A DNA stretch of 58,240 nt from Candidatus Woesearchaeota archaeon (GCA_018302125.1 JAGWAC010000031.1:1-58240); one strand, 5' to 3'; positions 14,334 through 20,572 are shown, counted from the stretch's first letter. The notes: generated by a model not told the origin, from the sequence alone. Translations and numbers: made by a program.

Positions 14334-14601
14334 TTAGATTTTTACAAGATCTTGCGTGAATTCCTGTTTATCCTGCAGGAGGTCACTGCTATTGGGATGC
14401 GATTTAGACATGCAAGTCAAGGATTCTTCGGAGTCCTGGCGTACGGCTCAGTAACACGTCGATAATCTGCCTTATGGTCTGGGATAACCTTGAGAAATTG
14501 AGGATAAGCCCAGATAAGAAAAAACTACTGGAATGTGTTTTTTCTGAAAAGCAATGCCATAAGATGAGTCGGCGGCTGATTAGGTAGTTGGTGAGGTAAA
14601 G

Positions 14602-14631
14602 ATTAGAATCAACCTTGATTCTAAATTACAA
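14602..14631 (+). other. 16S BHB intron, 30 nt (~E. coli 265/266)
   Basis: GTAA/TTAC helix, bulges AG^A and AA^G, 10-bp intron stem; splicing restores GGTGAGGTAAAGGCTCACC. Confidence 0.85.
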
Positions 14632-15117
14632 GCTCACCAAGCCTGTGATCAGTAAGGGGAATGAAAGTTCTGGCCTTGAGAAGGACACTGAGACAAGGGT
14701 CCTAGCCCTAAGGGGTGCAGCAGTCGCGAAACCTTTACAATGCGCGTAAGCGTGATAGGGGTATCCCAAGTGCCTACCTTCTGGGTAGGCTTTTGCTGAG
14801 TATAAATAGCTCAGAGAATAAGTGGTGGGCAAGACTGGTGCCAGCAGCCGCGGTAACCCCAGCGCCACAAGTGGTGACCACAATTATTGGGCCTAAAGCG
14901 TCCGTAGCTGGCTCAAAAAATCCTTTGTGAAATTGTTGGACTCAATCTAACAACGTGCAGAGGAGACTTTTGGGCTTGAGACCGGGAAGAGATAGAAGTA
15001 TTCCTTGGGGAGCGGTTAAATGTTATAATCCTTGGAGGACTACCAATAGCGAAGGCATCTATCTAGAACGGGTCTGACAGTGAGGGACGAAAGCTAGGGG
15101 AGCAACGCGGATTAGAT

Positions 15118-15201
15118 ATGGACAAGAAACTTATAAAATTTAAAATAATGTTGCAAAAAAATTAATTTATTTTAAATAAATGTCTCTTATGTTCACTAAA
15201 T
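15118..15201 (+). other. 16S BHB intron, 84 nt (~793/794)
   Basis: TTAG/CTAA helix, bulges AT^A and AT^A; splicing restores GGATTAGATACCCG. Confidence 0.9.
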
Positions 15202-16015
15202 ACCCGATTAGTCCTAGCTGTAAACGCTGCGAACTAGGTGTTGCATATTCTTTGGGAGTATGCAGTGCCGGAGCGAAGGTGTTAAGTTCGCCGCCTGGGA
15301 AGTACGGCCGCAAGACTGAAACTTAAAGGAATTGGCGGGGGCGCACTACAAGGGGTGAAGTGTGCGGTTTAATCTAACTCTACTCAGAAAATCTTACCAT
15401 GGGCGATGGCATGATGAAGGTCAGATTAAAGGTCTTACCTAAAGGGCCCAGAGATGCTGCATGGCCGTCGTCAGCTCGTGCCGTGAGGTGTCACGTTAAG
15501 TCGTGCAACGAGCAAGACCTACATTTATAGTTGCTAACGAGTCTTTTCGATGTTCGAGCACACTATGAAGACTGCCTTGGTAACAAGGAGGAAGGTGTAG
15601 GCAACGATAGGTCTGTATGGCTCGAATCTCATGGGATACACACGCACTGCAATGATAAGGACAATAGGATACAACTCCGTAAGGAGAAGTTAATCCCTCA
15701 AACCTTATCTTAGTTCAGATTGAGGGTTGTAACTCACCCTCATGAAGCCGGAATCCCTAGTAATCGGATATCATCAGTGTCCGGTGAATACGTCAATGTG
15801 CCTTGCACACACTGCCCATCAAGTCAACCGAGCAGAGTTTTGGTGAGGTTTAGTTTTTAGCTAAATCAAATCAGAGCTCAGTAAGGTGGGTTAAGTTGTC
15901 ACAAGGTATCTGTAGGGGAACCTGCAGATGGATCACCTCCTTTTATTTTATCTTTTACTAAGTACACAAACTAATTACATGCTTGAAAAAATTATGGGCC
16001 CGTAGCTCAGTCTGG

Positions 16016-16061
16016 TTAATCATTTTTGATTAAACTTTTTGCGAAAAAGTTTTTAGGACAA
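16016..16061 (+). other. tRNA-Ala D-loop intron, 46 nt (relaxed BHB)
   Basis: GTCT/GGAC helix, bulges GG^T and AA^T; contains a copy of the dispersed hairpin repeat. Confidence 0.75.
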
Positions 16062-16101
16062 TAGAGCACTGCCCTTGCAAGGCAGGGGCCTCGGGTTCAA
16101 A

Positions 16102-16134
16102 ATAATTTTTGTTAGACTCAAAAATTAATGAACA
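16102..16134 (+). other. tRNA-Ala T-loop intron, 33 nt (position 59/60)
   Basis: TTCA/TGAA helix, bulges AA^A and CA^T, stem TAATTTTTG/CAAAAATTA. Confidence 0.85.
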
Positions 16135-18542: not shown

Positions 18543-18662
18543 TTATCATTAATCTCGCTTTAGATTTAAGATGAAAAAAAGCCATTCATCTAAGAGAATA
18601 GCCTTTGGGTTTGTTAAACAAATGAGAGAAAAATTTTAGCAATGGGATTAATGATATCGTTG
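18543..18662 (+). other. 23S BHB intron, 120 nt (~1938/1939)
   Basis: GCGA/TCGT helix, bulges AA^T and TG^T; restores AAGGTAGCGAAATACCTTGTCG. Confidence 0.85.
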
Positions 18663-19164
18663 TACCTTGTCGTTTGAATGACGACGCGCATGAATGGCGT
18701 AACGAGATCCGCACTGTCCCTAGTTAGTGTCCACTGAAAATACCCTTCTGGTGTGCAGGCCAGAGACCTCCAGCGGGAAGAAAAGACCCCGTAGAACTTT
18801 ACTGTAGTTTGTTGTTGTGATATAGATTCTACTGTGTAGCATAGGTGGTAGTTGCTATGCCTTGGCTGCTAGGTCAAGGATAGACAAAACTGAAATACCA
18901 CTCTGCAGAATTTATGTTGCTTACTAACCTGTTAGGACAGCAGCAGATAGACAGTTTGGCTGGGGCGGCACCCTGTTGAAAAGATATCAACAGGGCCCAA
19001 AGGTCAACTCAAGATGTTTGGAAATCATCTGAAGAGTGCAAGAGCAAAAGTTGGCTTGACTGGATTTTGACCATTAAAAAATCCAGAGACAAAAGTCTGG
19101 TCTAGCGAACCCCTATGTCCTTATTAATAGGGGCTAGGTATGACAGAAAAGCTATCTCGGGGAT

Positions 19165-19770
19165 AATCTAGGAGAAACATCAAAAGATTATATACAACTA
19201 TCACCGAGTATTAAATATGAATAAAAAATTTGCATATTTAATCGGTGTGTTGCATGATGCACATATTATCAACAAGAAATCAAATTCCCAATATGGTTTT
19301 GAAATTGAGCAAAAAAATAAAAAATACGCTGAATTTTTGTCAACTTTCTTTTCACAGTTATTCAAAATTGAAAAACCAAAGTTAGAATTACGTGAAAGAA
19401 GTTGGGGAAATTATTGGCGTATTAGAATTTATTCAAAGAAAATATTTGAAGAAATTGTTCAATATGACTTTACAAAAATAATTAAGTCGCAATCAAAACA
19501 AATTAAAAAGGAAATGATTCGAGGATTTTATGATGCTGAAGGATCAGTAAGCAGTGATGAAGTAAGAATGTTTAATAAAAATACAAAACTCTTAGAAACT
19601 TTGCATGATATTTTATCTACTGAGTTTAATTTAAGACTTGGAAAGATAGTTGTATCAAAGGATGATGTTTATCAGCTTCCAATTTATGCGAAAAATGATA
19701 AAAACAAGTTTATGAAAATTTTCAAACCAATTCATCCTGATAAGTTTAAGATTTTCTCTTAGATCCCTAG
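19165..19770 (+). mobile_element. 23S BHB intron, 606 nt (~2449/2450), homing-endonuclease-encoding
   Basis: GGGG/CCCT helix, bulges AT^A and AG^A, 12-bp intron stem; restores GGGGATAACTGAG. Confidence 0.9.
19217..19762 (+). CDS. two-motif LAGLIDADG homing endonuclease
   Basis: FAYLIGVLHDAH and MIRGFYDAEGSV motifs; lies wholly inside the intron. Confidence 0.9.
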   Translation: MNKKFAYLIGVLHDAHIINKKSNSQYGFEIEQKNKKYAEFLSTFFSQLFKIEKPKLELRERSWGNYWRIRIYSKKIFEEIVQYDFTKIIKSQSKQIKKEMIRGFYDAEGSVSSDEVRMFNKNTKLLETLHDILSTEFNLRLGKIVVSKDDVYQLPIYAKNDKNKFMKIFKPIHPDKFKIFS

Positions 19771-19855
19771 AACTGAGTCGTAGCGCCTAAGAGCTCATAT
19801 CGATGGCGCTGTTTGCTACTTCGACGTCGGCTCACCATATCCTGGCTGTGCAGAA

Positions 19856-20033
19856 TGTCGCAGGCAAAATTAACTCAATAGTTTTTCTAACCAAAAAATT
19901 CTAAGTCTTTTCTTCAAATTCTGTTAGTCAGAAGAATTAAAAATCTTCAAAAAGAAAAGACTAGTTAGAACTATAATAATTTCATATTCATTTTTAGAAA
20001 TTATTGAGAAAAATTTTGTCCTTCGAACTGTAG
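19856..20033 (+). other. 23S BHB intron, 178 nt (~2534/2535)
   Basis: GCAG/CTGT helix, bulges AA^T and AG^G; restores GGCTGTGCAGAAGCAGCC. Confidence 0.85.
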
Positions 20034-20087
20034 GCAGCCAAGGGTGGGGGTGTTCACCCATTAAAATGGTTCGTGAGCTGGGTTAAG

Positions 20088-20171
20088 GAACGGTTGTAAG
20101 CAAATGTATAAGCAAACTAAAACATCTCTGTATATTTGCTGAAGTGAGGTTTAAGTCCTCCCGTTTAATAT
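20088..20171 (+). other. 23S BHB intron, 84 nt (~2588/2589)
   Basis: GTTA/TAAT helix, bulges AG^G and AT^A, stem AACGG/CCGTT; restores GGGTTAAGAACGTTGTGAGACAG. Confidence 0.85.
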
Positions 20172-20572
20172 AACGTTGTGAGACAGTTTGGATTATATCT
20201 ACTGGAGGTGCATAATATCTGAGGGTAAGGATCATTTAGTACGAGAGGAACGGTGATTCGGAGCCTCTGGTCTATCGGTTGTCTGACAAGGCAGGCCGAG
20301 CAGCTACGCTCTAATGGATAACTCCTGAAAGCATCTAAGGAGGAAGCCAAACTCAAAACGAGATATAGGACGCTCAAAGAACATGAGCTTGATAGGACTG
20401 AAGTGTAAGTATGAAGCTTCGGCGACATATTCAGCTTGCAGTTACTAATCGTCCAAAACCATCAAACTTCAAATAATTGCCTATGTACATTTTTTATTTT
20501 TTAATTCTATAATTTTTATCAGAGAAATCTTAATATAATCAAATTTCCGGAGATTTTATTAAAGTGATTTAA

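Follow-up and report, generated by a model that had tools for sequence, protein, structure and literature searches.

Seven inserts with bulge-helix-bulge geometry, very probably protein-spliced introns, in one rRNA operon of a Woesearchaeota archaeon

The rRNA operon of a Candidatus Woesearchaeota archaeon (GCA_018302125.1, JAGWAC010000031.1:1-58240; the window, in what follows, is this whole stretch of 58,240 nucleotides (nt)) is interrupted by seven inserts, two in the 16S gene (S1 and S2) and five in the 23S gene (L1 to L5). All seven have the geometry of the bulge-helix-bulge (BHB) motif, and we regard it as highly likely that all are archaeal BHB introns removed by the splicing endonuclease EndA and the ligase RtcB; we call them introns below. 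Contigs assembled from RNA contain the ligated exon junctions of L1 and L5, and the motif of L3 is kept by covariation among homologues. A preliminary description of this DNA had placed the host in a DPANN lineage, in agreement with the titles of its EndA relatives (Candidatus Woesearchaeota or Nanoarchaeota) and with the source, groundwater metagenomes.

The rRNA operon and its inserts

Both rRNA genes match their Rfam models over the full length and exceed them, the 16S gene by about 100 nt and the 23S gene by about 1040 nt. Insert boundaries were located with BLAST and MAFFT against intron-less 16S and 23S genes of the same family or order (L001, L002, L003, L019 and others; three-digit L numbers are our labels for rRNA loci and G numbers those for genomes). 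The final boundaries combine pairwise BLAST blocks, alignment of the junctions and a junction-matching script; a MAFFT multiple alignment of intron-bearing and intron-less 23S genes scattered the inserts, and the pairwise approach was used instead. The search covered thirty relatives, and a family-level search yielded no more. The genes, the introns and the short exons between them are as follows.

14360..15941, + strand: 16S rRNA gene, 1582 nt (Rfam RF01959, 1341.9 bits, full model of 1478 positions)
14602..14631, + strand: intron S1, 30 nt
15118..15201, + strand: intron S2, 84 nt
16438..20468, + strand: 23S rRNA gene, 4031 nt (Rfam RF02540, 2119.7 bits, full model of 2987 positions)
18385..18516, + strand: intron L1, 132 nt
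18517..18542, + strand: exon between L1 and L2, 26 nt (23S 1913-1938; 100% identity to intron-less relatives)
18543..18662, + strand: intron L2, 120 nt
19165..19770, + strand: intron L3, 606 nt
19771..19855, + strand: exon between L3 and L4, 85 nt (23S 2450-2534; 88-89% identity to intron-less relatives over 85 nt)
19856..20033, + strand: intron L4, 178 nt
20034..20087, + strand: exon between L4 and L5, 54 nt (23S 2535-2588; from the alignment of relatives)
20088..20171, + strand: intron L5, 84 nt

The positions of the inserts, their number in each gene and the exon sizes of 26, 85 and 54 nt had been given in the preliminary description, and all are correct by alignment. The same holds for its statement that six inserts of 30-178 nt lack an open reading frame (ORF): L3 alone carries one, and in the other six there is no open stretch longer than 43 codons.

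Excision of S1 and S2 leaves a 16S rRNA of 1468 nt (1466-1472 nt in intron-less relatives), and excision of L1 to L5 a 23S rRNA of 2911 nt (2876-2922 nt in intron-less relatives). The joints of all five 23S introns match those of the intron-less relative L002 at 28-30 of 30 positions, and in the 16S gene excision restores GGTAAAGGCTCACC at S1 and GGATTAGATACCC at S2, the same as in the 16S of relatives. The G+C content of the introns is 17-35% and that of the exons 42-48%; the extra segments are visible as dips to 25-30%.

We take the 16S sites to be E. coli 265/266 (S1) and 793/794 (S2), as computed on an E. coli 16S sequence in which three primer anchors (341, 515 and 785) all lie at the expected places. 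The 23S sites are presumably 1912/13 (L1), 1938/39 (L2), 2449/50 (L3), 2534/35 (L4) and 2588/89 (L5), counted from modification landmarks (psi1911/1915/1917, m5U1939, D2449, Um2552 and psi2604/2605). By this numbering S2 would lie in the 790 loop, L1 in the loop of helix 69 (H69) and L3 in the peptidyl-transferase centre, while L5 would adjoin U2585.

Bulge-helix-bulge geometry of the seven introns

In a canonical BHB, four exon nucleotides located two bases upstream of the 5' splice site pair with four intron nucleotides that end two bases before the 3' splice site, and each bulge, 3 nt long, is cut behind its second base. Such an arrangement is consistent with the position-32 pairing rule for anticodon introns. 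Our boundaries were set by homology, independently of the motif, and any ambiguity was confined to those 2-4 registers in which the rRNA sequence is restored. In the canonical register (3-nt bulge, 4-bp helix, 3-nt bulge), all four pairs of the central helix (H) are present in all seven introns; shifted registers reach four pairs in 2-4% of cases, and the joint chance of seven out of seven is about 1e-9, ambiguous boundaries allowed for. As a negative control, inserts near 23S position 1931 in three relatives (L004, L006 and L007) score 0-2 of 4 in the same test. Unconstrained minimum free energy (MFE) folds with 25-nt flanks give the central helix with open bulges in every intron except L5. 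Alignment and the register test thus bear out the earlier assignment of the inserts to the BHB type, with removal restoring conserved rRNA. A BHB scan without fixed boundaries was discarded: it gave many false registers in this AT-rich sequence and became informative only after homology had fixed the boundaries.

The intron-side helix (h') is present in all seven introns, with 5-13 bp, and is interrupted in L4. The exon helix (h) is clear only in S1; it has a one-nucleotide offset in S2, L2 and L4 and amounts to about 0-1 bp in L1, L3 and L5, whose motifs are of the relaxed HBh' form.

S1 interrupts a 16S hairpin loop at GGUAAAG|G and is a near-perfect 3-4-3 BHB. Its H is GUAA/UUAC with bulges AG|A and AA|G, the exon helix has 6-8 bp, and the intron forms a 9-bp hairpin, with one extra unpaired A beside H; the MFE fold contains all four H pairs and leaves all six bulge bases unpaired. 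The site is empty in the 16S of eight of nine relatives; in the ninth (G009) it is filled by a 38-nt insert whose H and bulge geometry are those of S1. S2 lies at GGAUUAGAU|ACCC, where the uninterrupted sequence of relatives is that restored by excision. Here H is UUAG/CUAA (four Watson-Crick pairs) with bulges AU|A and AU|A and an h' of 6 bp, the exon helix is displaced by one unpaired A, and the MFE fold gives the motif. Just one of the four sequence-restoring registers has all four H pairs, and a homologous insert is found at this site in G001, a genome of the same genus.

In the 23S gene, the boundary of L1 is unique and its junction matches L002 at 30/30 positions. L1 has H = GGAA/UUCU, bulges UA|U and AG|A, an h' of at least 6 bp with an extension, and an exon helix of about 1 bp. 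For L2, H is GCGA/UCGU with bulges AA|U and UG|U and an h' of 13 bp; the exon helix AAGGUA/UACCUU (5-6 bp) is offset by one nucleotide, and the motif is recovered by MFE folding. One of its two sequence-restoring registers has all four H pairs, and an intron of 139 nt with an identical H occupies this site in G001. L3 has H = GGGG/CCCU, bulges AU|A and AG|A, an h' of 12 bp and no exon helix, with four H pairs in only one of three sequence-restoring registers. In L4, H is GCAG/CUGU and the bulges are AA|U and AG|G; h' consists of 3+3+7 bp separated by 1x1 mismatches, the exon helix GGCUG/CAGCC is displaced by one U, and H is present in the MFE fold. The L4 site also bears an intron in G001, G012 and G023. 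L5 has a weak, AU-rich H (GUUA/UAAU), bulges AG|G and AU|A, an h' of 5 bp and no clear exon helix; its boundary is unique, with a junction match of 29/30. Introns at the L5 site in G001 and G009 have H = GUUA/UAAC and a covarying h', which in G009 differs in sequence yet is complementary.

A G.U pair beside the 3' bulge occurs in all five 23S introns and was considered as a recognition feature. We treat it as chance because homologues do not keep it: the L3-type introns have five G.U and four G-C pairs, and the L5-type introns of G001 and G009 have G-C.

L3 and its homologues

L3 contains the only ORF among the seven introns.

19217..19762, + strand: L3 ORF, 181 aa, LAGLIDADG_3 (Pfam, E = 1.5e-9)

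Reading of the protein sequence reveals YLIGVLHDA and RGFYDAEGS, two motifs that end in D and E, and the closest solved structure is I-DmoI, from the 23S intron of Desulfurococcus mobilis (E ~1e-3). These features predict a LAGLIDADG homing endonuclease of I-DmoI type as the product of the ORF; such an enzyme would probably spread L3 at the DNA level. The protein has 15 homologues of 33-99% identity; the eight that we fetched (49-70% identity) are all encoded in the same 23S site, GGGGAU|AACUGAG. Together with the window, this gives nine L3-type introns, and all nine have four of four H pairs, both bulges and an h' of 8-13 bp. Across the alignment of these nine sequences, 97.2% of cells are paired and both partners have changed in 10 of 16 pairs. 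None of 500 shuffles reaches these values, and sliding the 3' partner gives at most 65% pairing.

Exon junctions in RNA contigs

The organism is present in groundwater metagenomes and metatranscriptomes, and we used the assembler contigs of metatranscriptome runs (X21, X22, X24 and others) and metagenome runs. At L1, RNA contigs in X21, X22 and X24 reach position 18384 and continue with ACTATAATTCTCTT, which is 18517-18530. The X22 contig (533 nt) has no mismatch across the 185 nt upstream of the joint, a flank with 11 differences in the same-genus relative and 25-41 in intron-less relatives. At L5, an X21 RNA contig reads GCTGGGTTAAG joined to 20172-20251, without mismatch in 80 nt; relatives differ at 3-15 positions in this flank. 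L1 and L5 are therefore removed, and their exons ligated, at the RNA level.

The other introns yielded less specific contigs. The RNA joint of L2 (18542>18663) skips exactly 120 nt and occurs in X22 and in none of four DNA runs, and that of L3 (19164>19771) skips exactly 606 nt; both are consistent with splicing. RNA contigs begin at 20034 for L4, and at S1 an RNA contig stops exactly at 14601, with none going on into the intron. Contigs of DNA from four samples run from exons through introns, while RNA contig depth inside all seven introns is zero (at 95-99% likeness). The preliminary description had named retention of the inserts in mature rRNA, or fragmentation in place of ligation, as the outcome that would speak against splicing; the ligated junctions contradict it for L1 and L5, and the other five introns offer no support for retention. 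We infer that S1, S2 and L4 are spliced as well.

Splicing enzymes of the genome

The genome has 829 kb and an estimated completeness of 97%, with one 16S and one 23S gene found. It encodes both enzymes of the proposed route, EndA and RtcB.

C25:15152-15739: EndA gene, 190 aa, PF02778 and PF01974 (E = 7e-29)

This is the only PF01974 match in the genome, and neither phmmer nor a profile (the query plus 80 homologues from Woesearchaeota and Nanoarchaeota) found a credible second (beta) subunit there. A profile match at C30:5664-6551 (E = 3.5e-11) was rejected as a beta subunit, being a lysine- and glutamate-rich protein with no EndA domain in Pfam. The nearest solved EndA chains are the alpha (catalytic) subunit of the Nanoarchaeum equitans heterotetramer, which is closest, and the alpha4 enzyme of Methanocaldococcus jannaschii. 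Relative to the latter, the N-terminus is about 20 residues longer and lysine-rich. The type of EndA, which the preliminary description had proposed to determine, is thus alpha4-like, to judge from a single gene of 190 aa with both domains and no beta subunit found. We consider the protein a putative homotetramer and presumably the enzyme that cuts these introns.

The RtcB ligase is encoded on contig C28 (440 bits). Its ORF (C28:29681-32524, - strand) has 1006 aa; the Pfam match is broken between profile positions 50 and 49 by about 1.5 kb of extra in-frame sequence, intein-like in appearance.

Proposed route of removal and alternative explanations

We propose that, in the primary transcript, a 4-nt segment of the 5' exon, located upstream of the splice site by two bases, would pair with the 4-nt tail of the intron, which ends two bases before the intron 3' end. 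The intron-internal h' would stack on one side of this 4-bp helix and a weak or absent exon helix h on the other, and through this arrangement both splice sites would be displayed in 3-nt bulges. A single EndA, if it is the homotetramer suggested above, would cut after the second base of each bulge, and RtcB would join the exons to restore the universal rRNA sequence. Because each motif is self-contained, the introns should be removable independently and in any order. Ordered splicing, which the preliminary description had considered possible, is accordingly not borne out: neighbouring motifs share no nucleotide, each consisting of its own 5' exon (4 nt) and intron, and the central helices of L1-L4, four of the five 23S motifs, coexist in one MFE fold of 18300-20260 (1.96 kb).

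Several observations weigh against this interpretation. With respect to the motifs, there is no convincing exon helix in L1, L3 and L5, and in S1, S2, L2 and L4 a bulge is faced by a single additional nucleotide that is unpaired or forms a wobble. The central helix of L5 is missing from MFE folds both with its own flanks and of the whole region, and three bases of the 3' bulge region of L3 pair with upstream exon bases in the MFE fold. With respect to the enzyme, residues 44-190 of EndA align to the strict M. jannaschii enzyme with a single 1-residue gap and no visible inserted loop, and relaxed BHB motifs are reported to be left uncut, or poorly handled, by alpha4-type enzymes (PMC5829648). 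With respect to RNA, narrow and stringent searches of the RNA contigs recovered no organism-specific junction of S1, S2 or L4, and these contigs contain no intron RNA, circular or otherwise. Joints with one short side recur in intron-less relatives. DNA runs, too, contain the L3 joint and an L4-like junction, from intron-less relatives with identical flanks, and because such joints occur in community DNA we count only those of L1 and L5 as organism-specific.

Some of the inserts, above all S1, might instead be retained expansion segments, or bacterial-type intervening sequences cut without ligation and leaving a fragmented rRNA. S1 lies in an apical loop where an extra helix could be tolerated, and for S1, S2 and L4 the expected junctions were not recovered. 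However, the junctions of L1 and L5 are ligated in RNA, no insert interior is covered by RNA contigs, one of which ends exactly at 14601, and S1 itself is a near-perfect 3-4-3 BHB with its splice sites within the bulges. Most of the sites (the 790 loop, the H69 loop, 2449 and 2588) are universally conserved single-stranded functional nucleotides, where on textbook knowledge an insert is unlikely to be tolerated. We therefore consider retention or fragmentation very improbable.

It is equally hard to sustain that the spliced-looking RNA derives from an intron-less strain or a second operon, with the operon of the window silent or a pseudogene. The data are metagenomic contigs rather than isolate reads, and intron-less L3 and L4 junctions do exist in the community DNA. 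Nevertheless, only one 16S and one 23S gene were found in a nearly complete genome, and L1 and L5 flanks specific to the organism lead, in the four DNA runs, only into introns, with no intron-less loose end listed at 18384 or 20172. The exons, moreover, are fully conserved, and the same intron sites are kept in other genera.

Least probable of all are self-splicing group I or group II introns as in other DPANN rRNA genes. In their favour, the 23S genes of Woesearchaeota and Pacearchaeota have documented introns of group I at 1923, 1931, 2500 and 2593 (PMC6125680), relatives have 280-731-nt non-BHB inserts at about 1931, and 2449 serves as a group I site name (L2449) in a paper on myxomycete rDNA (PMC13182076). 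Against them, six of the seven inserts (30-178 nt) are too short for a ribozyme core, and in L3 the ORF leaves only about 60 nt free. The BHB register is present in all seven and covaries in L3, and Rfam gives no group I or group II match in the window at gathering scores and none at E <= 1 on 18380-20175.

Intron load and origin among relatives

The heavy intron load that the preliminary description proposed for this DPANN lineage is real in that seven introns are present here, but it is not peculiar to this genome, since relatives of the same genus or family have 23S genes with 4-6 inserts. Introns occupy the S2, L1, L2, L4 and L5 sites in G001, whose 23S has five introns in all and keeps the geometry at L1, L2 and L5; the 23S of G009, also about 4.0 kb, has introns at the L1 and L5 sites, and its 16S at the S1 site, with conserved geometry. 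On the evidence of G001, G009, G012 and G023, the load is a trait of the lineage. G012 and G023 both use sites 2521 and 2534.

The first of these two sites holds a mini-intron of about 32 nt at 23S ~2521/2522 (AUCC|UGG, window site 19842/19843), found in L008 (G001), L006 (G012) and L005 (G023). It forms a perfect BHB with H = AUAU/AUAU and leaves a 13-nt exon before the 2534 intron. A DNA contig from the community has a 34-nt insert exactly at window site 19842/19843.

The L1 site is occupied by introns of three sizes: 597 nt with frameshifted ORFs in G009, 132 nt in the window, and a 32-nt hairpin in G001. The window and G009 introns have a 33-nt stretch in common, while the G001 hairpin keeps only the terminal BHB core. 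The three forms fit decay from mobile to mini-introns, and they picture how endonuclease-bearing introns may decay at a single site. We consider the six ORF-less introns to be probably decayed or minimised descendants of mobile endonuclease-bearing introns.

BLAST of each rRNA intron against the genome found no real copy elsewhere. A dispersed family of mini-introns was thus ruled out for the rRNA introns; only the D-loop intron of the spacer tRNA-Ala (see below) carries a dispersed repeat.

Relatives also have inserts that lack BHB geometry. Those at 23S ~1931, of 280-731 nt, occur in L004 (G018), L006 (G012), L007 (G016), G009 and G015, and one of about 309 nt lies near 2593 in G015. Both positions match archaeal group I sites (PMC6125680), and the inserts at ~1931 are probably group I introns.

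Relation to known introns and enzymes

The element described here is of a known type, and the introns are new members of it; the sites, the host lineage and the density are new. Protein-spliced rRNA introns have so far been treated mainly as a feature of thermophilic Crenarchaeota. The BHB introns of crenarchaeal rRNA (Desulfurococcus mobilis 23S with I-DmoI; Thermoproteales 16S, PMC4496867) have the same 3-4-3 motif, lie at highly conserved rRNA positions and are likewise a mix of LAGLIDADG-bearing and short hairpin-only introns. Their hosts, however, are thermophilic, whereas the present host belongs to the mesophilic groundwater Woesearchaeota. Also unlike the crenarchaeal case are the seven introns in one operon (nine with tRNA-Ala) and the exons as short as 26 nt here and 13 nt in relatives. 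The EndA of Crenarchaeota is an (alpha-beta)2-type enzyme, whereas the single EndA here is alpha4-like in appearance.

That the insertion sites are new, as the preliminary description suggested, is plausible. The 16S sites 265 and 793 lie outside the 13 loci that Jay & Inskeep 2015 (PMC4496867) list for archaeal 16S; for the 23S, none of the five sites is among the archaeal group I sites (PMC6125680), a comparison limited to group I sites. The group I catalogue of Nawrocki, Jones & Eddy 2018 comprises LSU 1923, 1931, 2500 and 2593 and SSU 1498, and its Figure 1 mentions in passing that introns of the BHB and group I kinds occur together in DPANN rRNA genes (PMC6125680). Their DPANN set covers the same lineages and the same kind of groundwater data, but the operon described here has no group I intron and uses other 23S sites.

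In DPANN lineages whose tRNA genes are heavily disrupted, Kaneta et al. 2018 described alpha4-type EndAs that carry an 'L3' loop, and they ascribed relaxed EndA specificity toward tRNA substrates to inserted loops (L1-L3 of the enzyme) (PMC5829648). As in these lineages, an EndA that is alpha4-like occurs here alongside disrupted tRNAs (the D-loop and T-loop introns of the spacer tRNA-Ala). In the present enzyme, however, no insertion relative to M. jannaschii is visible over residues 44-190, only the longer, lysine-rich N-terminus. That the predicted type of EndA does not obviously fit the relaxed motifs is the most interesting point of this system, and the combination of a plain alpha4-like EndA with relaxed motifs in non-canonical places calls into question the connection that has been published between specificity loops and the diversity of introns.

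More speculatively, a loop-less alpha4-like EndA might handle relaxed BHB motifs at no fewer than nine sites of one rRNA-tRNA transcript, with the lysine-rich N-terminus replacing the specificity loops. Given the introns in the H69 loop and the peptidyl-transferase centre, their removal could then be a late licensing step that keeps pre-ribosomes inactive until EndA and RtcB have acted. We regard this combined proposal as rather unlikely.

A likeness also exists to bacteria of the candidate phyla radiation (CPR), likewise groundwater organisms of ultrasmall size, in whose rRNA genes inserts are crowded. LAGLIDADG proteins are encoded by many of the CPR inserts, and the transcripts lack these inserts (PMC11270868, and Brown et al. 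2015 as that paper cites it). The CPR inserts, however, are introns of group I or II, or intervening sequences of the RNase III type, whereas those described here would be protein-spliced BHB introns.

In practical terms, rRNA genes of such lineages would be mis-sized, mis-annotated and missed by 'universal' primers; S2, for example, splits the 785F/806R region. If the proposed route is correct, ribosome biogenesis in these genomes of less than 1 Mb leans heavily on EndA and RtcB.

Spacer tRNA and flanking features

The spacer between the 16S and 23S genes contains a tRNA gene with two further inserts.

15997-16150, + strand: tRNA-Ala(UGC) in the 16S-23S spacer, missed by ARAGORN, two inserts

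The D-loop insert (16016-16061, 46 nt) has H = GUCU/GGAC, and the T-loop insert (16102-16134, 33 nt) has H = UUCA/UGAA with one extra A beside the helix; removal of both leaves a tRNA-Ala with normal D- and T-loops. As read from the sequence, the primary rRNA-tRNA transcript would thus carry nine BHB introns, the spacer tRNA-Ala included. The D-loop intron also holds, at 16023-16052, a short palindromic repeat (…TTTTTGATTAAACTTTTTGCGAAAAAGTTT…), copies of which, 16-34 nt long, occur at about 30 sites on other contigs, at least 18 in number.

ARAGORN with introns allowed gives 21 tRNA candidates genome-wide, seven of them intron-less and several of them spurious in appearance. Interruption at non-canonical positions, of the kind reported for DPANN (PMC5829648), probably affects the majority of the tRNA genes.

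The flanks of the 16S gene (14300-14359 and 15942-15985) pair into a long processing stem that contains the 3-nt bulges AGA and AAC in BHB-like chirality; in the MFE fold the two are 5 bp apart rather than 4. Folding pairs the 23S flanks over 15 bp without a clear BHB. Two further RNA genes were identified in the window, the first of them just upstream of the rRNA operon.

13562-13869, - strand: archaeal RNase P RNA (Rfam)
6869-6938, - strand: tRNA (Rfam only, borderline score)

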